A DNA stretch of 64,000 nt from an uncultured bacterium (GCA_903839725.1 CAIMDG010000001.1:107559-171558); one strand, 5' to 3'; positions 1-18,900 are shown, numbered from the stretch's first letter. The notes: generated from the sequence alone by a model not told the origin. A program made the numbers and translations.

Positions 1-366
1 TTTGGTAACCCGAAGATTCTCAATGATTTGGATTATGAACAAGATAACGTCATCCCTCTACGTAGATATTTCAAAACTCTTAGCCTCGAAGAAGGGAAGC
101 GTACTATCGATGAGTTCGTAGTGTTCAATCAAATGTTAGTTAAGAATAGTCTCATTGATAAAAGTTTTCTTATTGGCAAAAATTATGGTGTTAATGCTCA
201 AGGAAAAGTAATCCTTATTGATATTGGAGAGCTTTACTCGGCGCCAGAGAGTATCAAAAAGCAACTCGCTTTAAAACCTTGGGATATTGGATATGTTACT
301 TCAACAATTCCCAAAAGATTTCGTAGATATTTTGTTCAGGAAATGAATACACATCTCTGTATATAA
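1..366 (+). CDS. Partial CDS (5' end outside window); C-terminal kinase-like fragment
   Basis: Open frame runs to position 1 with no stop; KVILIDIGE resembles the DFG-like region of small-molecule/protein kinase fold; no firm family call. Confidence 0.35.
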   Translation, partial: FGNPKILNDLDYEQDNVIPLRRYFKTLSLEEGKRTIDEFVVFNQMLVKNSLIDKSFLIGKNYGVNAQGKVILIDIGELYSAPESIKKQLALKPWDIGYVTSTIPKRFRRYFVQEMNTHLCI

Positions 367-1131: not shown

Positions 1132-1212
1132 TCTCGCAATCTATTTATCGAAGAATATACCAAGGCCCCACAACACTGTGGGGCCTCTTATTTTATGCTA
1201 TTATATATGCAT

Positions 1213-2694
1213 ATGAAAAAACGTTCTTTACTCACATTTTTTAAAAATAAATATACGATTATTGGTATTGTTTTGATCCTTATTATTCTTGGTTATTGGT
1301 ATACCCATAGATCAAGTACAGTGGGCTTCGAGTCTGCAGATGTTGCTATCGGCAATGTTGTAGAAAAAGTTAGTATCACTGGTTCAATTTCTCCACTTTC
1401 CAAAACAGATCTCGCTTTCAAAAAGAGCGGCGTTGTTTCTGTTATTCCTGTGAAAGTTGGTGATCATGTGAAGAGGGGTGATCTGATCGCTTCTCTTGAT
1501 AGTGCTGGCGACAGAGCTGCTCTCGCAAGTGCACAAGCAACTCTTTCTGACATGTCACGTAGTTTGACTCCAGAAGAACTCAATGTGCAAAAGACAGCAC
1601 TCGATACTGCCCAGCAAAATGCTCTGAACGCTGTACATGATGGATATGCAAAATCTCAATCTGCATTGGTCAACTATACTGATACACTTTTTTCAAATCC
1701 TCAAAGCGTCAATCCGACTATTATCATACCGATTGATTCTACAACTCTACAGAGTACTATCAATTCTGAACGTGCCTTGGTTTCAAGTAAGTTGAATCTA
1801 TGGTCTTCTGGATTGACAACAGTACGAACAGATACAATTATGCCATTCATTTCCGAGGTGAATGCTCATCTTGCTGTTATAAAATCATTTATGAGTGATT
1901 TGTCGAGTATTGTCGGACGACTCAATCCTGGAAATTCAGGATTATCACAGTCAAGAATAGATGCATATATGATTTCTATGAATACAGGATTATCGGCAGT
2001 GAATAATGCTATCGATATTGTAACTTCTGCCAAGACAGCACTTCTCGCGGCTCAGTCAAATTATGATCTCAAGATTGCAGGAAACTCATCACAGTCTATA
2101 GCGTCACAAAGAGCAAAAGTTGATCAAGCACAAGCAAATGTGAATGATGATAGTATTTTTGCTTCTATCGACGGGATTGTAACCAAAGCAGATCCGAATG
2201 TCGGTGAATTTGTTGCTGCAGGCCAATCTGGTTTTGCTATTCAAAGCGATGGAGGATTCAAGATTGAGGCGCATGTTCCAGAAGCAGATATAGCTAAAGT
2301 TGCACTCAAGAATAAAGCCGATGTAACTCTCGATGCCTACGGTCAATATACGATTTTCCCTGCGACAATAACAGAGATTGATCCAGCTGAAACAATTCTC
2401 GAAGGAGTTCCTACATACAAAGTTACTTTGCAATTTGATATGCCCGATACTCGTATTCGTTCTGGTATGACTGCGAATACTGACATTTTGACACATGAAG
2501 TTAATGGAGTTCTCGTGGTACCTACTCGAGCAGTTGTTGATGATAATGGCAAGAAGTCAGTTAGAATCGTTGTGTCTGGTGGAAAAACATTTACTTCAGT
2601 TCCTGTTGTTGCTGGACTCAAGGGTTCAGATGGTACAAGTCAGATTATCTCGGGTGTGAAGGAAGGGGACAAGGTTGTCACCTATGTAAAGTAA
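1213..2694 (+). CDS. HlyD-family membrane fusion/periplasmic adaptor protein of ABC efflux system
   Basis: N-terminal TM helix, biotin-lipoyl-like hairpin (VKVGDHVKRGDLIASLD), long coiled-coil, C-terminal beta-barrel; start chosen at MKKRS (ORF opens at 1195). Confidence 0.7.
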   Translation: MKKRSLLTFFKNKYTIIGIVLILIILGYWYTHRSSTVGFESADVAIGNVVEKVSITGSISPLSKTDLAFKKSGVVSVIPVKVGDHVKRGDLIASLDSAGDRAALASAQATLSDMSRSLTPEELNVQKTALDTAQQNALNAVHDGYAKSQSALVNYTDTLFSNPQSVNPTIIIPIDSTTLQSTINSERALVSSKLNLWSSGLTTVRTDTIMPFISEVNAHLAVIKSFMSDLSSIVGRLNPGNSGLSQSRIDAYMISMNTGLSAVNNAIDIVTSAKTALLAAQSNYDLKIAGNSSQSIASQRAKVDQAQANVNDDSIFASIDGIVTKADPNVGEFVAAGQSGFAIQSDGGFKIEAHVPEADIAKVALKNKADVTLDAYGQYTIFPATITEIDPAETILEGVPTYKVTLQFDMPDTRIRSGMTANTDILTHEVNGVLVVPTRAVVDDNGKKSVRIVVSGGKTFTSVPVVAGLKGSDGTSQIISGVKEGDKVVTYVK

Positions 2695-2702
2695 TTTTGT
2701 CA

Positions 2703-2780
2703 TACCGGCGAAGGTCGGTATCCAGAGTTGTAGAACCCAAGAAGTTGTAAAAATGTTTTGGATACCGGCCTTCGCCGGTA
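2703..2780. repeat. 21-bp inverted repeat (1 mismatch) with 36-nt spacer between adaptor and ABC ATPase genes
   Basis: taccggcgaaggtcggtatcc (2703-2723) vs ggataccggccttcgccggta (2760-2780). Confidence 0.8.
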
Positions 2781-2799
2781 AGACACAAAATATAAGTAT

Positions 2800-3519
2800 A
2801 TGAATATCATTGAAGTAAAAAATTTAAAGAAAGCCTATCACGATGGTGTTACAGAAACGGTCGCACTTTCTGGTGTATCATTTTCTGTACGCAAAGGAGA
2901 GTTCGTTGCTATTATGGGACCATCTGGTTCAGGTAAATCAACATTACTTCATCTTCTTGGCTTATTGGACATACCAACGAGTGGCCACTATTCATTCAAC
3001 GGGAAAACAGTAACTTCATATTCGAGTGATGATCTTGCTCGGTTGCGTAATAAGGAAATAGGATTTGTCTTTCAATCATTCAATCTTCTTGCACGTACGA
3101 CTGTTCTCGAGAACGTTAAGCTTCCTCTTGTGTATTCGGAAGTGCCTGAGCATGAATGGAATGAACGTGCCACGAAAGCTATTGAAGCAGTAGGTCTCGG
3201 ACATCGCATTGGACATTATCAAGCGGAACTTTCAGGCGGTGAACGTCAACGTGTTGCTATTGCACGTGCGTTGGTGACTGATCCAGAAGTTATCTTTGCA
3301 GATGAACCAACGGGAAACCTTGACTCAAAATCAGGCAAGAATGTCATGTCAATTATTCAGAAATTGAATCAGATAGATGGTAAGACGGTTGTATTGATTA
3401 CTCACGAGACTTCAACGGCCGAACATGCTGAGCGTATTATCCGTCTTATGGATGGGGAAATAGAGAGTGATACCAAAGTAAAGAATAGACTTTCGGTTGA
3501 TGATGAATACGTAAAATAA
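2800..3519 (+). CDS. ABC transporter ATP-binding protein (MacB/LolD-like)
   Basis: Walker A GPSGSGKST, signature LSGGERQRVAIARAL, Walker B IFADEPTGNLD. Confidence 0.9.
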   Translation: MNIIEVKNLKKAYHDGVTETVALSGVSFSVRKGEFVAIMGPSGSGKSTLLHLLGLLDIPTSGHYSFNGKTVTSYSSDDLARLRNKEIGFVFQSFNLLARTTVLENVKLPLVYSEVPEHEWNERATKAIEAVGLGHRIGHYQAELSGGERQRVAIARALVTDPEVIFADEPTGNLDSKSGKNVMSIIQKLNQIDGKTVVLITHETSTAEHAERIIRLMDGEIESDTKVKNRLSVDDEYVK

Positions 3520-3545
3520 TCACTACGAATCTACATACTATTACC

Positions 3546-4784
3546 ATGAATATCAGACATACATTCAAAACATCATTCACAGGACTTACCACGAATCGTT
3601 CGAGATCGGCTTTAACGATTCTCGGTATCGTGATCGGTATAACCGCTATCATGCTTGTTATTTCTCTTGGAGGAGGAGCACAGGCTCTCATCTTGGGACA
3701 AGTGCAAGGACTCGGTACAAATACTATCGCCATCATTCCGGGACGTGAACCAACAGGGCCTTCAGATGTGAGTGCGTTGTACAGCGATTCGCTCAAACAG
3801 AAAGATATTATTGCGTTACAAAATAAAGCCAATGTTCCTGGATTAAAATCTATCATGCCAACGGTGTTCAGCGGTGGAACTTCTGCATACGACGTCAATG
3901 CATATCAAGTTTCAATATTTGGAGCAACTGAACATCTCGCTGATATCTTTGACCTTCATCCGGACCGTGGAGAATTTTTTACTATGGATGACGTGTTGTC
4001 ACGTAATGACGTGACAGTTATTGGTTCGAAAGTAGTTGAGCACTTGTTTGGAAATGACAATCCTATTGGTCAGAAAATCAAGATTAAAGGTAGAAATTTC
4101 AAAGTTGTTGGAACATTACCTTCGACAGGTGGTGGATCATTGTTCAATTTCGATAATATGACACTGATGCCATATACGACTGCGCAGGATTATTTACTTG
4201 GTATCAAATATTTTAGTCGTATTATTATCCAGACTCAGACTGATGAACAAGTTCCTTCAGCAAGTGCTGATATAGCTCAGACACTTCGTGATTCTCACAA
4301 TATTACTGATCCTGCAAAGGATGACTTTACTGTTCAGACCCAACAAGATCTCGCCAATCGTCTCGGTACTATTACGAGTGCACTCACGTGGTTCTTGGTG
4401 GCAGTTGCTTCGATTGCATTGTTCGTAGGTGGAGTTGGTATCATGAATATTATGCTTGTTTCAGTTACTGAACGTACTCGCGAAATTGGTTTACGCAAAG
4501 CACTCGGTGCAACTGATCGCGACATCCTCTCACAATTCCTTCTAGAAGCAGTCTTGCTTACGGCAATTGGCGGTCTTGTTGGGATCATACTTGGCGCATC
4601 GCTTGCATTTATTATTGCTATTGGGTTATCGAAAGGGCTTGGAGTCAATTGGCAGTTCATATTCCCATGGTCTGGTGCCATTCTCGGACTCGGTGTCTCT
4701 GCACTTATCGGTCTTGTCTTCGGAGGATATCCTGCGAAACAGGCTGCAAAGAAGAGTCCAATTGAGGCATTGAGGTATGAATAA
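3546..4784 (+). CDS. ABC transporter permease, FtsX/MacB family
   Basis: N-terminal TM, large periplasmic domain, C-terminal 3-TM FtsX domain (TERTREIGLRKALGA); adjacent to ABC ATPase. Confidence 0.85.
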   Translation: MNIRHTFKTSFTGLTTNRSRSALTILGIVIGITAIMLVISLGGGAQALILGQVQGLGTNTIAIIPGREPTGPSDVSALYSDSLKQKDIIALQNKANVPGLKSIMPTVFSGGTSAYDVNAYQVSIFGATEHLADIFDLHPDRGEFFTMDDVLSRNDVTVIGSKVVEHLFGNDNPIGQKIKIKGRNFKVVGTLPSTGGGSLFNFDNMTLMPYTTAQDYLLGIKYFSRIIIQTQTDEQVPSASADIAQTLRDSHNITDPAKDDFTVQTQQDLANRLGTITSALTWFLVAVASIALFVGGVGIMNIMLVSVTERTREIGLRKALGATDRDILSQFLLEAVLLTAIGGLVGIILGASLAFIIAIGLSKGLGVNWQFIFPWSGAILGLGVSALIGLVFGGYPAKQAAKKSPIEALRYE

Positions 4785-5922
4785 TATTTTCAACAATATG
4801 AAACAAACAAAGCAGGGAATAACCAAATTGAGCGTTGTCATGATTGTTGTTACAGTGATAATAATTGGCAGTTTGTTATATGTGGCATTTTTTTCTACTC
4901 AAAATTCATTTATAAGAAATAGTGCGCAACTGATCCCTACCAATGAACAAGTTCTCGCACAACGACCCCAGATCGCAGATGCAGATAATTCGTATTATGA
5001 TTTGATAGCTCTCAAAGGATTGATTCCCGCATCTCTACCACAAGTTGTATTGAATTATGCAGCTGGTTCTACTACGTCAGCACAAAACATAAAAGATCTC
5101 AAAAAAATAGTTACACAATATAAGGATGCATTTGCTATTTTCGATGCATCCACCGAAAAACCATATTATTTCTGTGATGACAAAGTAAAAAAGGAAGTAT
5201 GTAATTATTCAGATATACGAAATATAGCTTTATTGAATTCAGTACGATCCGGAATGCTCTTTGAAAATGGTAAGTATGCTGATGCTATGAATATATCCAT
5301 GAATACGTTGAAATTTGCACAAAAACTTCAACAGCCGTCAGATAGTCTCATGGAATATCTCATTTCGCTTGCCGTGAAGAGAATTGCTCTTCAGAGAATT
5401 TCTATAATTTTGAAATCAGGGAAGATATCTCAAGAAGCATTTGTTGCATATCAAAATCTGGTTTCTCAATATGCAGACAATAAAGGTGGTCAAAAAAATG
5501 TCTTAAAAATCGAACAGCTCGGTGGTTTCACTCTCTACATTAACGCAATAACAACAAATGAGTATAAGACATTCTTTTCATATACAGGTGTAGATGAGAA
5601 TGATGCTGATATGAAAAGTGTTGTTAATCGTATGCAGGAAGTAAAAACCAAGAATGCTGAAACATGGGATCCATATACCACATACAATTTGTTGCATGAA
5701 GTGTATTCAAATGAAGTAGCTAATATTGATTTACCTTGTGGCAGTGCGTATCCATCTGTATGGCGTCCAGATGAAACACTCGATTATTCGAAACCTACAA
5801 AAAATATTATAGGGCAATTGATATATGCGAATGCTCTTACTGAACTCAATGATTTGAATGTTCAGCGTTGTTCAATCGATAACCTCACAAATGCAGTTGT
5901 ATCTATGTCTTTTGTGAAATAA
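4777..5922 (+). CDS. Hypothetical membrane-anchored protein, translationally coupled 4th gene of efflux operon
   Basis: ATG overlaps permease stop by 8 nt; single N-terminal TM then 350-aa soluble domain with no recognisable motifs. Confidence 0.5.
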   Translation: MNNIFNNMKQTKQGITKLSVVMIVVTVIIIGSLLYVAFFSTQNSFIRNSAQLIPTNEQVLAQRPQIADADNSYYDLIALKGLIPASLPQVVLNYAAGSTTSAQNIKDLKKIVTQYKDAFAIFDASTEKPYYFCDDKVKKEVCNYSDIRNIALLNSVRSGMLFENGKYADAMNISMNTLKFAQKLQQPSDSLMEYLISLAVKRIALQRISIILKSGKISQEAFVAYQNLVSQYADNKGGQKNVLKIEQLGGFTLYINAITTNEYKTFFSYTGVDENDADMKSVVNRMQEVKTKNAETWDPYTTYNLLHEVYSNEVANIDLPCGSAYPSVWRPDETLDYSKPTKNIIGQLIYANALTELNDLNVQRCSIDNLTNAVVSMSFVK

Positions 5923-8978: not shown

Positions 8979-9104
8979 TCATATAGATGTATCCCTATTG
9001 CTCAATAGGGTGTGACCTTAGTTGTCCACACGAGTATTGTCAACAGGTTGGCTTGTTTTAGGATATAATTGAGGAATAGTTTTAATAACTCGTTTATATT
9101 TCTT

Positions 9105-12056
9105 ATGAAAAAATCATATATCTATCTCGTAGGCTTCACCTTTCTCTTTGTTTTGGGATTGTCATTCGTTACGGGATCGAGATTGATTGCTCAGGCACAA
9201 ACAGTAACACCTCTCAGTGGTTGGGCATGGTCATCAACTATAGGATGGCTCAGTTTTAATTCTTCAAATACAGAAATTGCAGCAGTAACAACATCACCTT
9301 ACTCCGTAAAGATTACAGTTGATTCAACTGGTAATACTGCAACATTGAGTGGCCAAGCATGGTCACCAAATATTGGTTGGGTTAGTTTTGATGCTGCAGA
9401 TGTGACAAATTGTCCAGTGGGTACATGTACTCCAACGATTAATTTGAATACAGGAGTAGTTTCTGGTTGGGCAAAAGCGCTTGCAGGAGATGGGACGATG
9501 GGATGGGATGGTTGGATAGGGCTTGCATCCACTACATGGGGAGTTTCGTATACAAAAACAACTGGAGCTTTTGGTGGATATGCATGGGGAAGTACGAACG
9601 TTGGTTGGTTATCTTTTGCAAATGTAACATGTCCATCATGTGTCGTTGCTTTGAATGTAACAAATGTAACTGTTGGTATTGGAGCTGGTAAAGTCACAAG
9701 TTCACCTTCAGGTATCGATTGTGGCATCATTTGTTCATCACAATATAGTCTGAATACCTCTGTAACATTGACAGAAGTACCAAGTGCTAATTCAACATTT
9801 ACTGGTTGGGGAGGAGCATGTAGTGGTACTGCAACGACGTGTACAGTTTCGATGAGTCAGGCAAAAAATGTTACCGCAACTTTCAGTTTGGTACCGATCA
9901 CTGTTTCTGTAAATACAACAGGTCCAGGTACTGTTACAAGTAATTTAGGAGGTATCTCATGTTCTGATGGAAATGCTGGTATATGTAGTAGTACATATGT
10001 CGCAGGCACAAATGTAACATTTACCCAAACACCAGCTGCAGGTGGAAATACATTCCAAGGCTGGGGAGGAGCATGTACAGGTACAGCGACAACATGCAGT
10101 ATTACCGTGAAAGGACATTCCGGTGATTTTGCTGCTACAACATACAATCAATGGAAGAGCCTATCTTTCTCAGCTTCTGAAATCGCTTCTGGTATAGCTG
10201 ATGAAATGTCAGACCCAGATAACGATACTGTACCAAATATCTATGAGTATGCTATCGGAACTGATCCACATGTCTTGAATCCTACTGTGGCAAATAAGAT
10301 GGCTGTGTTCCGTGGTTATAAGTCAGGAAACAATTTTGCATTTGATCACAAACTCAATACAAACCGCACAGATATAACATTTAAGGTTGGGGTAAAAACA
10401 GACCTCAGTACACCTTGGATTTATTATCCAGATGCATCTTCATTTACTGAAACTCAAAAAACGATTGATTCAGCAACAAAGTTGGTTACTGACAAAGCTG
10501 TAACTTCTTTCATGAGTGTTTCGTCAATGTATTTTGTATTCGGTATAAATAAAGGAGGTGTAGATTATTGGGCACCAGCTGCAATTTCTCCTGCCCCTAG
10601 CTTCGGTTCAGACCCAGGAACACCGGCATCAATCCTTCCATTCGTTACAGCAACATTCGTAGGAAATCCAACTCTCACACTCAATAAGAACGGTAGTGGA
10701 TCAGTTACCGATTCATCAGTTGCACCTGGCTCACCTCTCCTGCATTGCGGAACAGCGATAACAACCATACCATGTAGTAGTTCTCAGTACCCATTGAATA
10801 CCGTTGTCACTTTGACAGCTGTTCCTGCGACTGGATATACATTTACCGGTTGGAGTGGTGGAGGATGTGATGCGAATGGTCTTACCACATGTACAGTTAC
10901 TATGGATGTAAGTAAGACTGTTACAGCAACATTTACTACAGTTCCAGTTGATCTTAATGTGACAGTAACCGGCACCGGAGGCATAGTTGTTGGTGGAGGT
11001 ATATCATGTACTTCTACTGGAGGTACATCTTGTTCCGCTACGAGTCCTTCAGGAACTGTAGTGACACTGACAGCAGCTACAACATCTACCGGTATTACAT
11101 TTACAGGTTGGGGCGGAGATTGTCTCTCGAATGCAACTTCTCCAACATGTGTATTGACATTAAGTGCTACAAAAAATGTAACTGCAGTATTCGATGTTGT
11201 CGAATCTAATCTTACGGGAACATGTTCAATACCTGCGACTGCGGCTTATGCACCAATAACAATATCTGCAACTCTTAGCCCTGCTCCATCAGGTGCAAGT
11301 TGGCTCCAAACTTTCTTCTATTTCACTACACCAGGTACCTATAGTCCAACAGTTATTCTTTCGAGAAGTTCAACAGATCAGGTTGATGTTCCTTGCGGAC
11401 AAATTATTATCGCAGCTCCTGGTCCGATAGGAGGAGGGTCAGGAAATCTTACAGGAAGATGCTCATTTAGTCAGTCATCATATCCATGGTCATCTACCTT
11501 GAGTCTTACCCCAATACTCTCGAATACTTCTGGTGGTTCTGGAACTGGTTATTACTTCACACCATCGACTCTCAGTGGATTCACTCCTGGTAGTACAAAT
11601 CAACCTACAGTTACATTGCATGATGATGCCGGCAATAGTGTACCGATTACCTGTGATACATTCACCGTTGGCCTACCTGGTACCGTAACTCTTATTTCGG
11701 GCACATATAAGTTGTCTGTAGCTGGTACTCCAAGTTTGGCAAGTCAGGGAACACGAACTTCTGTTATTTCAAATAACAATGGACCAATCTATGCATATTG
11801 GCTCAGTTCGAGTGCTGGATGTACTATAAATGTGACACGCGCCTCTCTTGTCAAGACAAATCTCTATCTTACTCAATGGGCTCAGAATGGATTGCCTGTT
11901 ACAACTACGTTTGCCAAGAATGATATTAACCTTAAAAAGATATTGATGGTGGGTATACCAGATGATGATTGGAGTCTCCAGTTGATGTGCGGCGGAGTTC
12001 TGAAGGGTCCTAAGGTCAACATAACAGAAAGTGGATCAACAGTAACAGAGATATAA
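9105..12056 (+). CDS. Large secreted/cell-surface protein with Listeria-Bacteroides-type repeat domains
   Basis: Signal/TM at N-terminus; four N-terminal SGWAWSSTIGWLSF-type repeats; at least four 65-80 aa repeats with pattern C..C..Y..VTLTA.P...F.GWGG.C....C.V.M...K.V.A.F; ORF opens at TTG 9069, ATG 9105 preferred. Confidence 0.8.
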   Translation: MKKSYIYLVGFTFLFVLGLSFVTGSRLIAQAQTVTPLSGWAWSSTIGWLSFNSSNTEIAAVTTSPYSVKITVDSTGNTATLSGQAWSPNIGWVSFDAADVTNCPVGTCTPTINLNTGVVSGWAKALAGDGTMGWDGWIGLASTTWGVSYTKTTGAFGGYAWGSTNVGWLSFANVTCPSCVVALNVTNVTVGIGAGKVTSSPSGIDCGIICSSQYSLNTSVTLTEVPSANSTFTGWGGACSGTATTCTVSMSQAKNVTATFSLVPITVSVNTTGPGTVTSNLGGISCSDGNAGICSSTYVAGTNVTFTQTPAAGGNTFQGWGGACTGTATTCSITVKGHSGDFAATTYNQWKSLSFSASEIASGIADEMSDPDNDTVPNIYEYAIGTDPHVLNPTVANKMAVFRGYKSGNNFAFDHKLNTNRTDITFKVGVKTDLSTPWIYYPDASSFTETQKTIDSATKLVTDKAVTSFMSVSSMYFVFGINKGGVDYWAPAAISPAPSFGSDPGTPASILPFVTATFVGNPTLTLNKNGSGSVTDSSVAPGSPLLHCGTAITTIPCSSSQYPLNTVVTLTAVPATGYTFTGWSGGGCDANGLTTCTVTMDVSKTVTATFTTVPVDLNVTVTGTGGIVVGGGISCTSTGGTSCSATSPSGTVVTLTAATTSTGITFTGWGGDCLSNATSPTCVLTLSATKNVTAVFDVVESNLTGTCSIPATAAYAPITISATLSPAPSGASWLQTFFYFTTPGTYSPTVILSRSSTDQVDVPCGQIIIAAPGPIGGGSGNLTGRCSFSQSSYPWSSTLSLTPILSNTSGGSGTGYYFTPSTLSGFTPGSTNQPTVTLHDDAGNSVPITCDTFTVGLPGTVTLISGTYKLSVAGTPSLASQGTRTSVISNNNGPIYAYWLSSSAGCTINVTRASLVKTNLYLTQWAQNGLPVTTTFAKNDINLKKILMVGIPDDDWSLQLMCGGVLKGPKVNITESGSTVTEI

Positions 12057-12072
12057 AAATATATTTCTACAC

Positions 12073-12100
12073 AAAAAACCCAGCAATGGGGTTTTTTGTT
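12073..12100 (+). terminator. Rho-independent terminator after surface protein gene
   Basis: aaaaaacccagcaatggggttttttg. Confidence 0.8.
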
Positions 12101-12248
12101 GTACATGTTTGGGTGAGGATGTAAGGTTTGTTATATGTAGTACGGCCCAAGCGGCATTTCACAAATTTTTGTCAAAGTACAGGTGGATTATGTGGTTTTT
12201 TGATTCTGAATAAATGATGTACTTTAATGTTATAGATAGGGAGATACT

Positions 12249-13175
12249 CTATAAGTTTTCATTCTTAATCTTTGAATATGCTTTCTTAAGCTCAAGTGTT
12301 AATTTCTCGATATGTTCATTTTGTTTTATCTCATGCAAAGTTCCTCGGATTATTAGTATTCCAAATACTATACTTATAATGAGTAAACTTGCTTCCTCTA
12401 TCGTGGTGTGCACGTCCTTTGCCCCACAAATGCGAATAATCGAGATTATCCATAATGCAAACATGACTAACTCGATGGCGATGACTTTAATATTAAAGAG
12501 CATATGTCGAGTAATTGAGTATGTCATAAGGAAAATCCAGAAAATTGCTGATATAGGACCAAGCCAATTCAAATCAAAATATCCAAATCGGGGTAATATT
12601 ATAGATATGGTAAATGGAATAATTGAACCAAATAATATTAATAAGAATACATATTTAATTTGATTTTTTATTAAAATTTCAATACATTTCTTGTAATCAT
12701 TAAATAGTTTAACTAGACCAATAGTAAATGAGGAAAGAAAATATACTTCAAAAAGTAATGATAGTGGTCCAAAATGCCAACCCCAGGATGATACTGAGTT
12801 GAGATTATATACATCATATACAATTAAGTTAGTAAAAAAGAATAGGTAAAATAATATTATTTCCCAAGCAATTAAAATTATCTGTAAAATTTTTGAAGGT
12901 GCTTTGTTGTGCGGGTATATAAAAAAGAAGTTTAAAAATGATGAAGCAATGAGACTTCCTACAAAATACGTAAATCTGTTTAAAAATGTAGCTACTGTGT
13001 GATTGTTTGTTGAAATTAGGAATCCCATTCCAGTCATCCATATACATGCTAAAAGAATACTAAACCCAAAAGATTTTCCAGATTTATTTTGCGTGCTTAC
13101 ATATGTAAGAATTGTTAAGCATGCAACTATAAGGGCTGTAAGCCAAATAAACATTGAGTATATAGAAATTGTCAT
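12249..13175 (-). CDS. Stand-alone 7TM sensor-domain protein paralogous to the N-terminal domains of the two downstream histidine kinases (no kinase domain)
   Basis: 7 predicted TM helices; C-terminus LHEIKQNEHIEKLTLELKKAYSKIKNENL aligns with HK linker YREISQREKIEKLATDLQKANDRLLELDRQ and stops where the DHp domain would begin. Confidence 0.6.
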   Translation of the reverse strand: MTISIYSMFIWLTALIVACLTILTYVSTQNKSGKSFGFSILLACIWMTGMGFLISTNNHTVATFLNRFTYFVGSLIASSFLNFFFIYPHNKAPSKILQIILIAWEIILFYLFFFTNLIVYDVYNLNSVSSWGWHFGPLSLLFEVYFLSSFTIGLVKLFNDYKKCIEILIKNQIKYVFLLILFGSIIPFTISIILPRFGYFDLNWLGPISAIFWIFLMTYSITRHMLFNIKVIAIELVMFALWIISIIRICGAKDVHTTIEEASLLIISIVFGILIIRGTLHEIKQNEHIEKLTLELKKAYSKIKNENL

Positions 13176-13329
13176 AATATTTGGTAATTATAATACCTGA
13201 TTAAATTTAATGCTAAGTAGGATTGAATATTGAATATTCAGGGTAATCATGCTTAATTATTCAATCAATAATTTAATACAAAGTATTTTATGTAAGGCTT
13301 CATGTTAGTCAATATGTTATAATCTATTA

Positions 13330-14148
13330 ATGGTAAATTTCGAGGAACAATTTTGTACAAAAAGAAGTATAAATTTCTATGGAAGATCTATATCGTTCGT
13401 AGATGTGACTCCACCCATGCTCATAAGCAATATTCCTATTATTATTGCTCCTGGTTGGGGAGAAACGCCAAAAACCTTCAAAGATTTAATACACTTGTTA
13501 TTTGACGCCGGATTTCGAGTGGTTTCGATGACACATCCACGACAAGATTTGAAGTTAATTACTAGAAGTAATATTTCTAGATTAGAATCACAAAAAGCTG
13601 AAATTATTTTAACAGTATTAAAATTTCTTGGTATTGAAAAGGTAAACGTTGTAGCTCACTCAGAGGGTGCCATAAACTCAGTTATTGCGGCGCACATGAA
13701 ACCTACTTTATTTAAAAATATATTACTTGTGGGACCAGGGGGGCTTGTTGAAAATGAAAATTTTACTGAATTAGCAGGTAGGTTTATTGGTAATATGATT
13801 CAAGGCGGAGGTCAAATATTTACGGATTCTGTCGCGCGAAAGTATATTATCAGATCAGGGTTGGAAACTTTTAAATATTTTCTTATGAATCCAGTCATGG
13901 GACTTCTAGAAGGGAGTGCAATATCCAGAACGCATCTACAAGATTTTTTGGTTGATTTACATTCAAATAATATAACTATAGGAGTAATTCATGGCGTAGA
14001 TGATATAGTTTTTCCACTCAAGAAAATGAAATCATTGACTGAATTAAAATGGATTAGCTTTTATTCAGTTGAGGGTGATCATAGTGACATATATGATCAT
14101 TCAGAGAAGTATATTACCTTTATTCAAAAAAGATTTACTGATAATTAA
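13330..14148 (+). CDS. Alpha/beta-hydrolase fold protein
   Basis: PGWGET N-terminal motif, nucleophile elbow VVAHSEGA (sm-x-Ser-x-sm), size 272 aa; AT-rich gene. Confidence 0.6.
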   Translation: MVNFEEQFCTKRSINFYGRSISFVDVTPPMLISNIPIIIAPGWGETPKTFKDLIHLLFDAGFRVVSMTHPRQDLKLITRSNISRLESQKAEIILTVLKFLGIEKVNVVAHSEGAINSVIAAHMKPTLFKNILLVGPGGLVENENFTELAGRFIGNMIQGGGQIFTDSVARKYIIRSGLETFKYFLMNPVMGLLEGSAISRTHLQDFLVDLHSNNITIGVIHGVDDIVFPLKKMKSLTELKWISFYSVEGDHSDIYDHSEKYITFIQKRFTDN

Positions 14149-14159
14149 GATTTAATGAA

Positions 14160-14831
14160 ATGAATAAATTTTATATAATTAGTTTACTTATTCAGCAAAA
14201 GTTACCTTGGGTTCCGGTAAGAATATTGTTAGTTTTATTTGCTCATTTCAAAGTAACTGGATTAGAAAATCTAAAGGGTATTAAAGGTAATGCCATTTTT
14301 GCTTGTAATCATGCTAGCGAACTAGATATTCCGCTTCTTCCAGCCGCAATACCTTTTTGGTCACATTTTTCCCCAATGTTATACGCATCTCGAGAAAGTG
14401 GTTTTTATGGGGGATCCGGATGGCGAAGACATTTTTATGGCGGTGTATTTTTTAATTTTTTAGGATCATATCCTGTGGTAGTTGGCTTACGAAATTATAA
14501 AAAAGCACTATCTCATCAAATTCGTATTATTAATACTGGTAATAGCTTATGTATTTTCCCTGAAGGAAGAACTACACCAAACGGCATAATCCAAGGTGCA
14601 AAAGGTGGGGTAGCTTATCTTGCGTATATAACAAATGTTCCAATAGTTCCCGTTAAACTCGGTGGAACTTTTAGATTTTCAATAAAGAATTTTCTATTAA
14701 GAAAAATTAAATTATCGGTTAGTTTTGGCAAACCCATATATTTATCTGTAAATAATGAAGTAGATATACCAATCAAAGAGTGCAAGGATAGGGCAAATGA
14801 GGTTATGGATGTAATTAAAAAGATGGTATAA
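14160..14831 (+). CDS. 1-acyl-sn-glycerol-3-phosphate acyltransferase-like (PlsC family) lysophospholipid acyltransferase
   Basis: HX4D motif NHASELD, FPEGRTT motif III, N-terminal membrane anchor. Confidence 0.7.
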   Translation: MNKFYIISLLIQQKLPWVPVRILLVLFAHFKVTGLENLKGIKGNAIFACNHASELDIPLLPAAIPFWSHFSPMLYASRESGFYGGSGWRRHFYGGVFFNFLGSYPVVVGLRNYKKALSHQIRIINTGNSLCIFPEGRTTPNGIIQGAKGGVAYLAYITNVPIVPVKLGGTFRFSIKNFLLRKIKLSVSFGKPIYLSVNNEVDIPIKECKDRANEVMDVIKKMV

Positions 14832-14841
14832 TTTAATTACC

Positions 14842-15717
14842 ATGAAAGGAGTTTTCATCGACAATGATCATACGGTTGGATATGAAACCAACTCAATTTT
14901 TCGTAAAATATTTAATCTTATTTTTATACCTGTATTGTATATTTTTCCATCTAGAGCGGTACATATTTTAAAAAAAATTCATGTATCAACAGAAGAGATG
15001 GTTGCTCATGCTGGAACACATAGGGCAATGGAAGTAATTTACGATGTCAACCCTCGGCCCAAAGCAAATTATTTTCAAAATTTGTTTCTGTCAGTATGGC
15101 TGGGAATGAATAACTCAAAGGCTGTGAGGAATAGGCTTAGAATGGTTAAAAAGGAAATCAAAAGGAAAATACATAAACTTTCTGAACTGAATAAAGAAAT
15201 AAAAATTATTAATATTGCTTCTGGATCAGCCCGTGCTGTATTTGAATCTATTCATGAGGTTCCTTTGAAAAATGATACAAAACTATCTGCTGTTTTTGTT
15301 GATAAAAATTATGAGGCAATTGCCTTCAGTCAACAGCTAGCCAGTACTCATAGGTTTCTCCCATCTTTTAGATGGGTAAATGATTATGCTCATAATTATT
15401 TAAATAACAATGAGAATAAGTCAAAGTTCAATATCGCAGAAGTTGTCGGTTTGCTGGAATACTTAAGTGATAAAGATGCAATAAATATTTTCTTATTAAT
15501 TTATGAGTGTTTAGATTCTGATGGTATTCTCATTACAACAAATATTGTTAGTAATTTTGAAAGTACATTTATATCAAATTCTGTTGGATGGAAAATGAAC
15601 CATCGCAATGTTGATGAGTTGTCTTCGCTTCTAATCGAGGCAGGGTTTAAATTGGACAAGATGAATATTTATTATGAGCCTCAACGAATACACTGCGTAA
15701 TAGTGGCTCAAAAATGA
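14842..15717 (+). CDS. Hypothetical protein, possible class I SAM-dependent methyltransferase
   Basis: IINIASGSARAV resembles MTase motif I, VFVDKNYEA resembles motif II; weak. Confidence 0.35.
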   Translation: MKGVFIDNDHTVGYETNSIFRKIFNLIFIPVLYIFPSRAVHILKKIHVSTEEMVAHAGTHRAMEVIYDVNPRPKANYFQNLFLSVWLGMNNSKAVRNRLRMVKKEIKRKIHKLSELNKEIKIINIASGSARAVFESIHEVPLKNDTKLSAVFVDKNYEAIAFSQQLASTHRFLPSFRWVNDYAHNYLNNNENKSKFNIAEVVGLLEYLSDKDAINIFLLIYECLDSDGILITTNIVSNFESTFISNSVGWKMNHRNVDELSSLLIEAGFKLDKMNIYYEPQRIHCVIVAQK

Positions 15718-17342
15718 ACCCAGTTAATCTATTTGCCATATCAGCCTTAGTTAATGGAATCGTCTCTATTACATTTGGACTGCTTGTTATTTCTAAAAAT
15801 TGGAGAGACAGAATGAACCAGATATTCTTCTTAATGACTGTTTTTTTAGCTATTTGGTCTTTTTCATACTGGCAGTGGCAATTGGCAACTAGTTATGATA
15901 CAGCATTACTGTGGGTTAAATTGTTATCGATTGGATCACTGTTTATTCCAATATTTTTTTACAATTGGGTTATAAAATTAATTAATGAAGAAAGTCTTCT
16001 TAATAGAGTTGTCTTATGGTCTTGTTACATAACATCTTTTTGTATTCTTTTTTTTGTTAATTCTAATTTGTATATTTCCGGATTAGAAAATAAATCTTTT
16101 TTTCAGTTTTGGCCTAGTTCAGGTGTGGTCTATGATATATATTTTTGTTATATATATTTTGGCCTAATTTTGTATACAGTTTATATATTGTTTCGTACTT
16201 ATTTTATAACCAAAGATAGAGATAAAAAAGGACAGTTATTGTATATAATTATTAGTTGCGTTCTTGGCTTTGGTGGAGTTATAACAGATTTTCCTCTTTG
16301 GTGGGATATTAACATACCACCATATGGTAATTTTTTAGCCGCTGTTTTTCCTCTATTACTAGGTTATTCAATTTTAAAGTACAAGTTATTTAATGTCCGA
16401 GCTATTGTTTCTGAAATTCTTGTATTTTTTATTTCAATCGTTTTGTTAATTGAAGCAATTTTATCAGTTTCCGTCCTGGAAGCAGTAGTAAAATTTTCGG
16501 TATTTATTATTGTTTCAATTTTTGGGTATATACTTATTCGCTCTGTATACAGAGAAATCTCCCAGCGCGAAAAAATCGAAAAACTCGCCACTGACCTCCA
16601 GAAAGCCAATGACCGCCTTCTCGAACTTGATCGTCAGAAGTCAGAATTCGTCTCATTCGCTACACACCAACTTCGCGCACCTCTAACTGCCATGAAAGGG
16701 TATGCCTCTCTCATTTTGGAAGGGGATTTGGGGGCTATTAGTGACCAGCTCCGTCAGGCAATTTCTCGAATATTTGAATCATCGAAGACATTGGCAAATA
16801 TAGTTGATGACTATTTGAACCTTACTCGTATTGAGTTGGGAACAATGAAATATGCATTTGATACAGTTGATCTGAAGACGGTTGTTGAAGATGTTATCGG
16901 AGAGCTTGGGCCAAATATCAAGAAAGATGGGCTTGAATTCACATTCAAGGCTGAGGATATGGGTGATCAATGGGATTGGCGTGTTACGGCGGACCGAGAC
17001 AAGCTTAAGCAAGTTATTGCAAACTTGGTCGACAATTCGATCAAATATACGTTACAAGGCTGGGTTCACGTGACATTGTCTTTTGACCGACCTAAGCATA
17101 AGTTTCTTTTTAGAGTAGAAGATAATGGTATAGGTATAGCCTCAGAGACACTACCATTGCTATTCAACAAATTTAGTCGTGCGGGAAATGCCAATAAGAC
17201 AAATATCAAGGGTACAGGACTTGGTTTGTTCGTGGCAAAACAAATTATTGACTCGCATCATGGTGCCATATACGCAACGTCACCAGGTGAAGGTAAAGGA
17301 TCGACATTTACCGTTGAATTAGAACCATTCGCTAAAGCATAA
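15714..17342 (+). CDS. 7TM sensor histidine kinase (HisKA + HATPase_c)
   Basis: 7 TM helices, H-box SFATHQLRAPLTAMKGY, N-box/G-boxes (NLVDNSIKYT, EDNGIGI, GTGLGLFVAKQI); start overlaps previous gene by 4 nt. Confidence 0.85.
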   Translation: MNPVNLFAISALVNGIVSITFGLLVISKNWRDRMNQIFFLMTVFLAIWSFSYWQWQLATSYDTALLWVKLLSIGSLFIPIFFYNWVIKLINEESLLNRVVLWSCYITSFCILFFVNSNLYISGLENKSFFQFWPSSGVVYDIYFCYIYFGLILYTVYILFRTYFITKDRDKKGQLLYIIISCVLGFGGVITDFPLWWDINIPPYGNFLAAVFPLLLGYSILKYKLFNVRAIVSEILVFFISIVLLIEAILSVSVLEAVVKFSVFIIVSIFGYILIRSVYREISQREKIEKLATDLQKANDRLLELDRQKSEFVSFATHQLRAPLTAMKGYASLILEGDLGAISDQLRQAISRIFESSKTLANIVDDYLNLTRIELGTMKYAFDTVDLKTVVEDVIGELGPNIKKDGLEFTFKAEDMGDQWDWRVTADRDKLKQVIANLVDNSIKYTLQGWVHVTLSFDRPKHKFLFRVEDNGIGIASETLPLLFNKFSRAGNANKTNIKGTGLGLFVAKQIIDSHHGAIYATSPGEGKGSTFTVELEPFAKA

Positions 17343-17346
17343 TTAT

Positions 17347-18888
17347 ATGAATTTATTTGCTGCATCATGTCTTGTTCTTTCTCTCAGTAGTATCCTATTT
17401 AGTTTTATTCTCTACAGAAGTGATCCGTTGAATAAAGTAAATAAATATTGGTTCATTTCAAGTCTCGTCTTTTCTCTATGGTCATTCGGTCTATTTGAGA
17501 TTGCACTTACATCCGATGATTCCATGGCCTTCTTCTGGCAGAACATGATCAATGTATCAGCCGTATTCATTCCCTTGGTATATGTATTTTTTCTCTTTGA
17601 ATTCCTCGGACTCAAGCAACGAAAGATGCGTATCGGGTTGTTTGTCTTGGCAGCAGCATTCTCTGAATTTAGTCTGACTCCATTGTTCCAACAAGGCATA
17701 ACAATGACAAAAGGTTTCTTCTGGATCAATCCAGGACCATACTATTTGCTGTTTCCAGTCTATTTCATGGTCTATGCAATCATATCAGTATCTCTCCTCG
17801 TTGTTTCCTATGGAAATTCAGAAAAGGGTAGTCCTATGAGAAAGCAGATACGTAATATGATCATCGGAAGTTTGATTGGCTATTTGGGTGGAGTTACAAA
17901 CTTTTTTCCTGAAATATTCGGAGACTATCCATACGGTAACTATTTGATCATTTTTTACATTATATTCATGATCTATGGCGTTATACGCTATAGAAGTTTG
18001 AATGTAAAAACTATTTCAACACAACTATTTTCAGGAGCTTTGATATCAGTGGTATTCTTCAATTTTATGCGTTCAGTTAATCTGGAAGATTGGATAGTTA
18101 ATTCAATTGTCCTCATTCTCGTTATTACATTTAGTATGATCTTGGTTATTGCAAATGATCACTTGAACGAAACTAACCGAGAAAAGTCAGAGTTCGTATC
18201 ATTTGCTACGCACCAACTTCGCGCACCACTAACTGCTATGAAAGGGTACGGTTCGCTTATTCTCGAGGGAGACATGGGTGAAGTAAACCCAGAAGTTCGC
18301 CAGGCAGTTTCTCGTATGTTCGAATCAACCAAGACCCTCGCCAGTATTGTTGATGACTATCTTGATGTAACTCGTATCGAATTGGGAACCATGAAATACA
18401 TATTTGACCGTGTTGATCTCAAATTGTTGATTGAAGATGTTATCGCTGAACTCAAACCAAATCTCAAACGTGAAGGTGTTGCTTTTGACTTTAAGATTGA
18501 AGAAATGGGTCAGCAGTGGGATTGGTCAGTAAAAGCGGATCGCAACAAATTGAAGCAAGTTATTGCAAATCTATTGGACAATTCAGTGAAGTATACCTTG
18601 CAAGGTTTTGTGCACGTCTCATTGTCTTTTGATAGAAAGAAACATAAGTTTGTATTTAAAATCGAAGATACTGGAGTAGGTATTGCACCAGAGGTTCTTC
18701 CAACACTCTTCAATAAATTCATCCGCGCCGGTAATGCGAATACTGCCAATGTTAAAGGTACTGGTTTGGGTCTTTATGTTGCAAAACAAATTGTTGAAGG
18801 TCATCGTGGAGCAATTCGTGCTTCATCTGCCGGAGAAGGAAAAGGCTCAATATTTGTAGTTGAGCTCAATCCATTCGAGATTCTCTAA
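17347..18888 (+). CDS. 7TM sensor histidine kinase, tandem paralogue
   Basis: Same architecture; kinase domain about 70% identical to the upstream HK at protein level, nucleotide similarity obvious by eye. Confidence 0.85.
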   Translation: MNLFAASCLVLSLSSILFSFILYRSDPLNKVNKYWFISSLVFSLWSFGLFEIALTSDDSMAFFWQNMINVSAVFIPLVYVFFLFEFLGLKQRKMRIGLFVLAAAFSEFSLTPLFQQGITMTKGFFWINPGPYYLLFPVYFMVYAIISVSLLVVSYGNSEKGSPMRKQIRNMIIGSLIGYLGGVTNFFPEIFGDYPYGNYLIIFYIIFMIYGVIRYRSLNVKTISTQLFSGALISVVFFNFMRSVNLEDWIVNSIVLILVITFSMILVIANDHLNETNREKSEFVSFATHQLRAPLTAMKGYGSLILEGDMGEVNPEVRQAVSRMFESTKTLASIVDDYLDVTRIELGTMKYIFDRVDLKLLIEDVIAELKPNLKREGVAFDFKIEEMGQQWDWSVKADRNKLKQVIANLLDNSVKYTLQGFVHVSLSFDRKKHKFVFKIEDTGVGIAPEVLPTLFNKFIRAGNANTANVKGTGLGLYVAKQIVEGHRGAIRASSAGEGKGSIFVVELNPFEIL

Positions 18889-18900
18889 CGCGATAGATAT

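Follow-up and report, generated by a model that had tools for sequence, protein, structure and literature searches.

In the current study, a stretch of 64,000 nucleotides from an uncultured bacterium (GCA_903839725.1, CAIMDG010000001.1:107559-171558; hereafter the window) was analysed with particular attention to an AT-rich patch at positions 12100-16560. The patch encodes a kinase-less seven-transmembrane (7TM) protein on the minus strand (12249..13175) and, on the plus strand, an alpha/beta-hydrolase (13330..14148), a PlsC-type acyltransferase (14160..14831), a methyltransferase (14842..15717) and the 7TM domain of a histidine kinase designated HK1 (15714..17342). We conclude that this patch is probably one allele of a hypervariable enzymes-plus-sensor cassette which is endemic to Patescibacteria, ultra-small bacteria, of the Paceibacteria type, and in which the enzymes would edit a hydrophobic molecule that is sensed by the 7TM domain. 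Such cassettes are exchanged by recombination with a recurrent right-hand breakpoint in the coiled-coil linker that leads from the last transmembrane helix to the H-box of the kinase, whereby the sensor and the enzyme genes upstream of it are grafted onto a resident kinase core. Sensor type, core type and methyltransferase lineage reassort across the group, and the block originates from within this same bacterial group. The gene content listed in an earlier annotation of the stretch (the original prediction) agrees exactly with what was obtained from translations and a Pfam hidden Markov model search.

Relatives were collected as 53 methyltransferase loci from a scan of GTDB species genomes, and are referred to by locus labels (L followed by three digits) or, for protein cluster representatives, by P followed by four digits. 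The exchange is apparent from a comparison with L060, a locus of a sister species that was reached via the orthologue of the orphan (i.e. kinase-less) 7TM gene and that shows the same gene order, from CSD, LeuRS and the surface protein through to YqeY, RmuC, L21, TPM and LemA. Protein identity between the window and L060 amounts to 91% for LeuRS, 98% for RmuC, 97% for L21, 90% for YqeY, 87% for the second kinase of the locus (HK2), 94-95% for the HK1 core and 70% for the orphan 7TM protein, and to 26-28% for the acyltransferases of the locus. In L060, the interval from the orphan 7TM gene to the HK1 core encodes an acyltransferase, a HAD hydrolase and a 7TM domain of another kind; the alpha/beta-hydrolase and the methyltransferase are missing, and a second acyltransferase is located on the other side of the orphan 7TM gene. 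By blastn, positions 13193-16565 have no DNA homology to L060, the flanks being 78-88% identical at the nucleotide level, and homology restarts at 16566; in HK1 this is residue about 285, a linker position some 25 residues ahead of the H-box. This breakpoint coincides with a step in GC content and with the end coordinate (16560) given in the original prediction. The HK1 gene accordingly consists of a sensor half (15714..16565), comprising a type-A 7TM domain and the start of the linker and forming the right-hand part of the exchanged cassette, and of a DHp and catalytic ATPase core (16566..17342) that is the resident part of the gene. In residue windows, HK1 is 17-30% identical to its L060 counterpart over residues 1-270 and 70-100% identical thereafter; against L057 the first 240 residues show 50-93% identity and the remainder 10-50%, and L006 follows the L057 pattern except for the linker window 271-300, which is 63% identical.

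A second, independent sister pair, L066/L067, behaves in the same manner. Enolase (97%), UbiE (93%), the kinase core (98%) and the hydrolase (81%) are alike in the two loci, as opposed to the acyltransferase (28%), the methyltransferase (44%) and the sensor (25%), and DNA homology restarts at kinase residue about 272. The gene order of the window recurs in independent assemblies and that of L060 recurs in L064 and other contigs; these arrangements are therefore not assembly chimeras. It was also observed that the sensor which replaces type A in HK1 of L060 (L060:4966-6570) is 46% identical to the HK2 sensor, and judging from this resemblance it may have originated from the neighbouring paralogue instead of from outside.

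No correlation between sensor identity and core identity was seen over 40 loci (Spearman 0.09), and single methyltransferase clades contain several combinations of the three sensor types with the two core types. The sensor is 71-78% identical to that of HK1 in L065, L057, L062 and L006; in L057, L062 and L006 a sensor of about 73% identity is joined to a core that is only about 32% identical to HK1, and in L065 the corresponding values are 78% and 58%. In these closest relatives of the cassette, the hydrolase is 70-77%, the acyltransferase 76-82%, the methyltransferase 64-71% and the sensor 71-78% identical to the window proteins. Their contexts are unrelated to that of the window: ruvA is the neighbour in L062, the L057 copy lies between a glycosyltransferase and iPGM, and the L057, L062 and L065 stretches have no housekeeping genes in common with the window. 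In 11 other loci among the relatives, the acyltransferase-methyltransferase-kinase block is found after dnaJ, and a position between LeuRS and YqeY is common to the window, L005, L011 and L012. The window cassette is closer to copies located elsewhere than to the syntenic L005 copy, and L064, being closer to L060 than to the window, does not serve as an outgroup.

Two of the relatives deserve separate mention. In L065 (8301-15622), a 7.3-kb insert containing the hydrolase, acyltransferase, methyltransferase and 7TM kinase genes, an AspRS gene and two small open reading frames (ORFs) is situated between rplE (L5) and rpsN (S14) of the spc operon, i.e. within one of the most conserved gene arrays of bacteria. 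In the Yonathbacteria contig L059 (5191-5868), an IS200-type Y1 transposase and four genes, including those for inositol-1-phosphate synthase and a second methyltransferase, separate the post-dnaJ acyltransferase from the methyltransferase-kinase pair, which has the appearance of an insertion into the block.

Concerning base composition, the patch has a GC content of 0.308 as compared to 0.416 in the remainder of the 64 kb (z = -6.6), the lowest value among 507 sliding windows of patch size at non-overlapping positions being 0.392, and a 300-nucleotide profile places its edges at about 12000 and about 16500. Its tetranucleotide usage correlates with that of the rest at 0.30, making it the strongest outlier, as every other segment falls between 0.76 and 0.89. 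The markedly AT-rich patch of the original prediction is thereby confirmed, and so is the remark, set there against the caveat of transmembrane coding, that the soluble enzymes are AT-rich as well: the hydrolase, acyltransferase and methyltransferase genes have a GC content of 0.32-0.33, with values of 0.35-0.40 at codon positions 1 and 2 (GC12; about 0.45 is typical) and of 0.20-0.26 at third positions (GC3; about 0.35 is typical). Since amino acid composition and synonymous sites are both shifted, transmembrane coding alone is insufficient to account for the dip. This explanation was rejected also because the HK2 sensor is less AT-rich, its 7TM region being mostly at 0.35-0.40 with a single 300-nucleotide window at 0.31, as against 0.25-0.30 in the 7TM region of HK1. 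The HK1 core, at 0.41-0.43, is at the level of the genome. A recent gene conversion between HK1 and HK2 was considered as the source of the step and rejected, as the two cores share roughly 70% DNA identity in an alignment assessed by eye and are therefore old paralogues.

When the relatives were examined for the same property (40-45 loci, host genome GC 0.30-0.54), the methyltransferase gene was found to be lower in GC than its flanks in 45 of 45 (mean difference -0.065) and the 7TM part of the kinase downstream of it in 41 of 41 (mean -0.077), while the kinase core deviates in no consistent direction (mean +0.008). GC12 and GC3 are both shifted downward in the cassette genes of the relatives, the step inside the kinase gene recurs in L065, L066 and the sister L060, and methyltransferase GC tracks flank GC (r = 0.88). 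Because the offset is constant in all hosts and follows host GC, it is not the fingerprint of a donor. These genes are always low in GC, whichever host carries them, and this does not reflect a recent import. AT-richness can consequently not be upheld as a mark of foreign origin, as had been suggested, since the same offset and the same kinase-internal step are seen in all 40-45 relatives. The persistence of low GC may be attributable to the AT-ward drift that is usual for flexible, less constrained genes. In practice, it is worth bearing in mind that a sharp AT-rich patch may reflect a stable trait of a flexible gene family and need not be recent foreign DNA.

These data bear directly on the horizontal acquisition suggested by the original prediction, taken here as a classical genomic island, recently imported, whose low GC is that of a distant AT-rich donor. 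The strong GC and tetranucleotide deviation and the absence of the block from the sister L060 would agree with such an island, and of the four features that define one, deviant composition and replacement at a syntenic site (in L060) were both found. Genome-specific deviation and mobility hallmarks, however, were not: the compositional offset is common to all relatives whatever their host GC, the alternative cassette of L060 is equally AT-rich, and homologues of the methyltransferase are almost confined to Patescibacteria, with labels such as Taylor-, Yonath-, Zambryski-, Nomura- and Azambacteria, 'Paceibacterota' and similar. No tRNA is present in the 64-kb window, no significant terminal or flanking repeats were detected, no integrase or transposase occurs among the block genes according to Pfam, and none of the viral contigs carries the methyltransferase. 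A mobile element was rejected for these reasons, and also because no Rfam family is matched within 11000-20000. The donor-island explanation is thus largely refuted and retains very little probability. What stands of the proposed horizontally acquired module is that the block constitutes a discrete unit (13193-16565 by blastn) which differs between sisters and has its nearest relatives in unrelated contexts; what does not stand is a compositional signal of foreignness, a mobility apparatus, or a source beyond a family that is almost exclusively patescibacterial. Synteny is not conserved in all relatives, the block being replaced in L060, and a normal composition of the block was likewise not found. 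One of the 53 loci, L052, stems from a bin labelled Pseudobdellovibrionaceae, a predatory lineage of Bdellovibrionota; the window proteins have counterparts on its contig at 24-34% identity, namely a hydrolase, a methyltransferase and a divergent 7TM kinase, and either the module occurs across phyla or the contig was binned wrongly.

The association of the enzymes with one another and with the sensor extends well beyond the window. In-frame fusions of acyltransferase and methyltransferase occur in L014, L043 and L049 as well as in clusters P0148, P0220 and P0234, and cluster P0144 is a fusion of hydrolase and methyltransferase that retains the AHSEGA elbow and is 32% identical to the window hydrolase over 234 amino acids (aa). 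As both kinds of fusion exist, the three enzymes are considered to be functionally linked. In 47 of the 53 genomes the next gene downstream of the methyltransferase is that of a 7TM kinase, four of the six exceptions being contig ends; 42 of the 53 loci have an acyltransferase gene upstream in the same orientation, and eight have the hydrolase. The hydrolase is present in seven of 13 loci with a type-A sensor and in none of 27 others (Fisher's exact test, p = 9e-5), L066, which was found later, being an exception to this association. Variable partner genes in relatives encode a Zn-dependent phospholipase C, a PLD-like protein, a HAD hydrolase and inositol-1-phosphate synthase. The proposal that enzymes and sensors form one module is therefore upheld insofar as both kinds of fusion and the regular position of the kinase after the methyltransferase are concerned.

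It is conceivable that the adjacency is incidental, the locus being a recombination hotspot with fast-evolving accessory genes in which the sensors are unrelated to the enzymes and the acyltransferase serves ordinary phospholipid synthesis. The position of the acyltransferase just past the dnaK-dnaJ operon in those 11 loci does look housekeeping-like, co-variation of methyltransferase and sensor is weak overall, and the kinases are without a local response regulator. We nevertheless regard this as unlikely, given that the kinase keeps its place behind the methyltransferase despite at least five genomic contexts and with overlapping gene starts, that enzymes and sensor change together in two independent sister pairs, that the 26-28% identity of the locus acyltransferases between sisters is unlike that of a housekeeping orthologue, and that the fusions tie both acyltransferase and hydrolase to the methyltransferase.

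Concerning the individual enzymes, the hydrolase (272 aa; Abhydrolase_1, 28.1 bits against a cut-off of 25.8) has an alpha/beta-hydrolase fold and a Ser-Asp-His triad according to Pfam, alignment and Foldseek (E about 1e-13). Its nucleophile elbow reads A-H-S111-E-G, and S111, D225 and H251 are invariant in an alignment of 27 sequences. The AlphaFold2 model (predicted local distance difference test, pLDDT, 83) is that of a generic lidded alpha/beta-hydrolase, with structural matches to esterases, C-C hydrolases, lactonases, haloperoxidases and KAI2/RsbQ proteins. A specific relationship to RsbQ or KAI2 was rejected, as the sequence matches are weak and the structure search returned only generic alpha/beta-hydrolase similarity. 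The acyltransferase, a 223-aa member of the LPLAT superfamily, matches PF01553 with E = 1.4e-16 (61 bits against a cut-off of 23), its translation contains the motifs NHASELD (HX4D) and FPEGRT, and its nearest solved structure is that of Thermotoga PlsC (5kym). It falls short of the TIGR00530 cut-off for equivalogs of 1-acyl-sn-glycerol-3-phosphate acyltransferase (49.2 bits, 102.95 being required), and its score for the Aas acyltransferase domain is about as high. The methyltransferase (291 aa) is a class I S-adenosylmethionine-dependent enzyme of the Methyltransf_20 family (PF12147; 43.1 bits against a cut-off of 21), in which A126, G128 and R131 of the SIASGSAR motif and D154 are invariant and the remaining motif positions nearly so; its family numbers 382 clusters at E < 1e-30. 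The best match of its AlphaFold2 model (pLDDT 88) in the PDB is 3ocj, a protein of unknown function, followed by small-molecule O-, C- and N-methyltransferases. A search of the literature available to us returned nothing on PF12147/Methyltransf_20 or on this gene association, and HisKA_7TM only in census-type papers. The designation of these enzymes as lipid-modifying is plausible, if unproven, and comes solely from the predicted PlsC-type family of the acyltransferase, the folds of the hydrolase and methyltransferase being generic.

A further reading is that methyltransferase and hydrolase act on the receptors themselves, in the manner of CheR and CheB: the former would methylate either the 7TM kinase or the kinase-less paralogue, and the latter would serve as a methylesterase, so that sensitivity is tuned. 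A methyltransferase and an esterase-type hydrolase do adjoin membrane receptors, and the two are fused in P0144. The fold of the methyltransferase, however, matches small-molecule methyltransferases, CheR is not among the matches listed, the hydrolase occurs in only eight of the 53 loci, and the acyltransferase-methyltransferase fusions would have no role in such a scheme, which renders it extremely improbable.

HK1 and HK2 are both HisKA_7TM kinases in that the 7TM domain, the H-box and the ATPase motifs are present (HisKA_7TM, HisKA and HATPase_c by Pfam). The H-box of HK1 is SFATHQLRAPLT, and the kinase motifs as read comprise the H-box FATHQLRAPL, DNS..Y, EDNGIGI and GTGLGL. The architecture of HK2 (17347..18888, +) is the same; its 7TM sensor is of another type than that of HK1, and the two cores have a protein identity of about 71-75%. 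An overall identity of 87% to HK2 of L060 (90-91% in the sensor) identifies HK2 as a vertically conserved tandem paralogue of HK1. A receiver domain is found nearby only in L053/L054 and L019 among L001-L057.

The orphan 7TM protein (308 aa) matches HisKA_7TM only, is devoid of a kinase domain and ends in a coiled-coil linker just ahead of the position at which an H-box would be expected. Its alignment to HK1 stops at this linker, which is the same linker in which the cassette breakpoints lie. L060 and L064 have kinase-less orthologues of it, with 70% and 66% identity, respectively, and its homologues comprise a full kinase of 538 aa, forms of 404-408 aa with 7TM and HisKA only, and forms of 300-323 aa with the 7TM domain only. 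The sensor type is that of divergently transcribed full-length kinases in L011, L012 and L062 (33-40% identity). The 7TM-only form persists down to 42% identity and is present in two copies in L061; given this conservation, it is a retained kinase-less receptor and not a fresh pseudogene. A 149-aa ORF at 12214-12663 (+), antisense to this gene, was not counted as a gene because the 7TM gene that it overlaps carries a Pfam match and has conserved orthologues.

The methyltransferase stop codon overlaps the HK1 start codon (ATGA) and HK2 begins 4 nucleotides past HK1. With gaps of 11, 10, -4 and 4 nucleotides from hydrolase through acyltransferase, methyltransferase and HK1 to HK2, these genes are predicted to form one operon that is divergent from the orphan 7TM gene. 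The 154-nucleotide intergenic region between them (13176..13329; GC about 0.26) is AT-rich and presumably holds promoters for both the orphan 7TM gene and the hydrolase-to-HK2 operon; promoter-like hexamers are present on the minus strand (13312-13285 and 13216-13187), but shuffled sequence yields such matches no less often. To the left, a spacer (12057..12248) lies between the convergent orphan 7TM and surface protein genes; it contains a hairpin, AAAAAACCCAGCAATGGGGTTTTTT, at about 12075-12099, bordered by an A-run and a T-run as read in the sequence, and no kinase-domain remnant was found in it by tblastn with kinase cores. The surface protein (9069..12056, +; 995 aa, InlB B-repeat/Flg_new_2 by Pfam, TTG start) has a normal GC content of 0.419. 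It is 48-50% identical to its counterpart in L060 at the aa level, as against 91% for LeuRS just upstream, its DNA shows patchy homology of 64-67%, and L060 has an additional 196-aa gene between LeuRS and the surface protein gene. The surface protein therefore constitutes a hypervariable left flank, and the variable region reaches to the left of the AT-rich patch at normal GC.

Further afield, a MacA/MacB-like export system (HlyD, ABC ATPase and MacB_PCD/FtsX permease) is encoded at 1195-5922, followed by a 381-aa ORF (GC 0.342) that belongs to no Pfam family. Homologues of the export ATPase (60-61%) and permease (about 40%) are found near the methyltransferase-kinase locus in L021, L025 and L030, and the transporter may belong to the same functional neighbourhood. 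A GDSL-family lipase/acylhydrolase gene at 24270-24905, between recR and dnaB and about 8 kb from the cassette, encodes a possible lipid-acting enzyme. The region 20951-23558, which encodes TPM_phosphatase, LemA and a 293-aa ORF without a Pfam match, has a GC content of about 0.50-0.51 (window mean 0.416) and forms a GC-rich counterpart to the AT-rich patch; TPM_phosphatase is 81% identical to that of L060, its neighbours being 96-98% identical.

In terms of function, we propose that the three enzymes would act together on a hydrophobic molecule, adding or removing acyl groups and methylating it; the most plausible candidate is a membrane lipid or lysolipid taken from the host cell. The co-inherited 7TM domain would detect the substrate or product of the enzymes within the membrane. 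The conserved kinase core would then pass the signal to a response regulator encoded elsewhere, while the kinase-less 7TM paralogue, putatively a degenerate former kinase, may modulate sensing. Exchange of cassettes probably proceeds by homologous recombination after DNA uptake, for which the conserved kinase-core DNA could provide one anchor. Patescibacteria have been reported to lack lipid biosynthesis, and according to a 2024 review no mechanism of lipid uptake or breakdown has been identified in them (PMC11665869); the lysolipids of neighbouring cells have been proposed as their source of lipids (PMC11665869; PMC12455944). A lipid-editing role fits these bacteria because they are reported to be without lipid synthesis and possibly use the lysolipids of their neighbours.

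A number of findings weigh against this interpretation. None of the three enzymes has a known substrate, only the acyltransferase belongs to a lipid-type family, and then not as a PlsC equivalog, and the hydrolase and methyltransferase resemble many small-molecule enzymes. A Kyte-Doolittle scan at the usual threshold predicted no transmembrane helix in any of the three and no N-terminal membrane anchor in the acyltransferase or methyltransferase. No receiver domain was found within the 64 kb by tblastn with CheY, PhoB and Spo0F, despite the two complete histidine kinases. With regard to co-variation, enzymes and sensor are swapped together in the window/L060 and L066/L067 pairs, while in L014/L021 and L023/L026 methyltransferase and core are 65-74% identical and the sensor alone differs; the overall correlation between methyltransferase and sensor identity is weak (Spearman 0.28), and L066 pairs a 74%-identical hydrolase with a different sensor type. 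The persistently low GC, including the GC3 step within one reading frame, is without a mechanistic explanation. As to the direction of the exchange, the outgroups L005, L011 and L012 carry the methyltransferase-kinase pair at this position, which favours replacement in L060, and the nearest relatives of the window cassette sit elsewhere with other cores, which favours acquisition in the window lineage.

For the handling of lipids in Patescibacteria, the locus is a widespread, conserved and experimentally tractable candidate, in which a PlsC-type acyltransferase is joined, genetically or by physical fusion, to a methyltransferase and a hydrolase and wired to a membrane sensor kinase. It furthermore represents a clean natural case of sensor-domain grafting, with a junction that recurs in the linker between the 7TM domain and DHp and that is marked by an in-frame compositional step, and is as such useful for understanding how two-component sensors gain new inputs and for the engineering of chimeric kinases.

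The layout of variable enzyme genes and sensor half next to a conserved kinase half invites comparison with signalling cassettes of the agr, com or Cqs kind. The enzymes would then make a diffusible hydrophobic signal, the co-varying 7TM domain would be its receptor, and the cassettes would define communication or recognition groups among the bacteria or with their hosts. CqsS and LuxN, multi-pass transmembrane kinases that sense hydrophobic autoinducers, offer a precedent for such a receptor. The arrangement is that of agrB-agrD-agrC (PMC10482373), and it was found in two independent sister pairs (window/L060 and L066/L067); sister species pair different enzyme sets with different sensors, and the hydrolase is weakly similar in sequence to the signalling hydrolases RsbQ, KAI2 and D14. 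Arguing against a pherotype-like cassette, there is no adjacent response regulator and no sign of autoinduction, the enzymes are unlike known autoinducer synthases, the methyltransferase is sometimes kept while the sensor alone is swapped, and the likeness to RsbQ and KAI2 exists only at the generic alpha/beta-hydrolase level. On balance we view this as a possibility worth keeping in mind, albeit a rather doubtful one. It is with similar reserve that an agr-like but enzyme-based recognition system in Paceibacteria can be envisaged, in which the enzymes of interchangeable cassettes would make a cassette-specific lipid-like molecule, and each cassette, with its matching intramembrane 7TM receptor domain, would be plugged into a common kinase core through recombination at a fixed junction; if true, lineages would possess distinct 'chemotypes' with which to sense self, kin or the membrane of a lipid-supplying host.

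Returning to the preferred interpretation, that of an exchanged enzymes-plus-sensor cassette, several known systems can be compared to it. In staphylococcal agr, the polymorphic segment consists of the ligand-making genes and the membrane sensor half of the kinase, the cytoplasmic half being conserved (PMC10482373). The same layout is found here, with the boundary at HK1 residue about 285 in window/L060 and at about 272 in L066/L067. Pneumococcal comC/comD and blpC/blpH pherotypes are similar to agr. In contrast to agr, the cassette contains enzymes (hydrolase, acyltransferase, and methyltransferase or HAD hydrolase) instead of a peptide precursor and a processing protease, its sensor is of the HisKA_7TM type and is without an adjacent response regulator, and a ligand is known only for agr; moreover, variation is between species, the cassette relocates to other loci, and kinase cores are themselves swapped.

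DesK-DesR of Bacillus subtilis comprises a kinase with five helices that senses the state of the membrane, an adjacent regulator and the des desaturase gene, which it controls. Both systems place a polytopic kinase without an extracellular domain beside a gene for a lipid-modifying (here putatively so) enzyme, which by analogy suggests sensing within the bilayer and editing of lipids. The present kinase differs from DesK in having seven helices and no local regulator, in that the enzymes are encoded upstream in the same operon, and in that the sensor co-varies with the enzyme set; such co-variation points to a specific ligand more than to bulk membrane properties, and the comparison to DesK is a functional analogy only.

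In phospholipid remodelling of the Lands-cycle type, a lysophospholipid acyltransferase of the PlsC/LPLAT superfamily works with a lipase; an example is Chlamydia CT775, which is reported to act on host-derived lysolipids (PMC5693948). A PlsC-superfamily HX4D acyltransferase and a serine hydrolase are likewise encoded here, in an organism reported to be without lipid synthesis (PMC11665869). The enzymes of the cassette differ in being predicted ones, with the acyltransferase below the PlsC equivalog cut-off and the hydrolase not specifically lipase-like, and a Methyltransf_20 enzyme and a sensor kinase are integral to the cassette and not to the known systems. For the methyltransferase itself, the closest known entity is PF12147 with 3ocj of Bordetella parapertussis: the window protein exceeds the cut-off of the family, and 3ocj is the structure nearest to its model, but no characterised member of the family was found, and membership indicates fold and not function. 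Taken together, the cassette belongs to a known kind, that of polymorphic sensor cassettes and kinase domain shuffling, and is a variant thereof.

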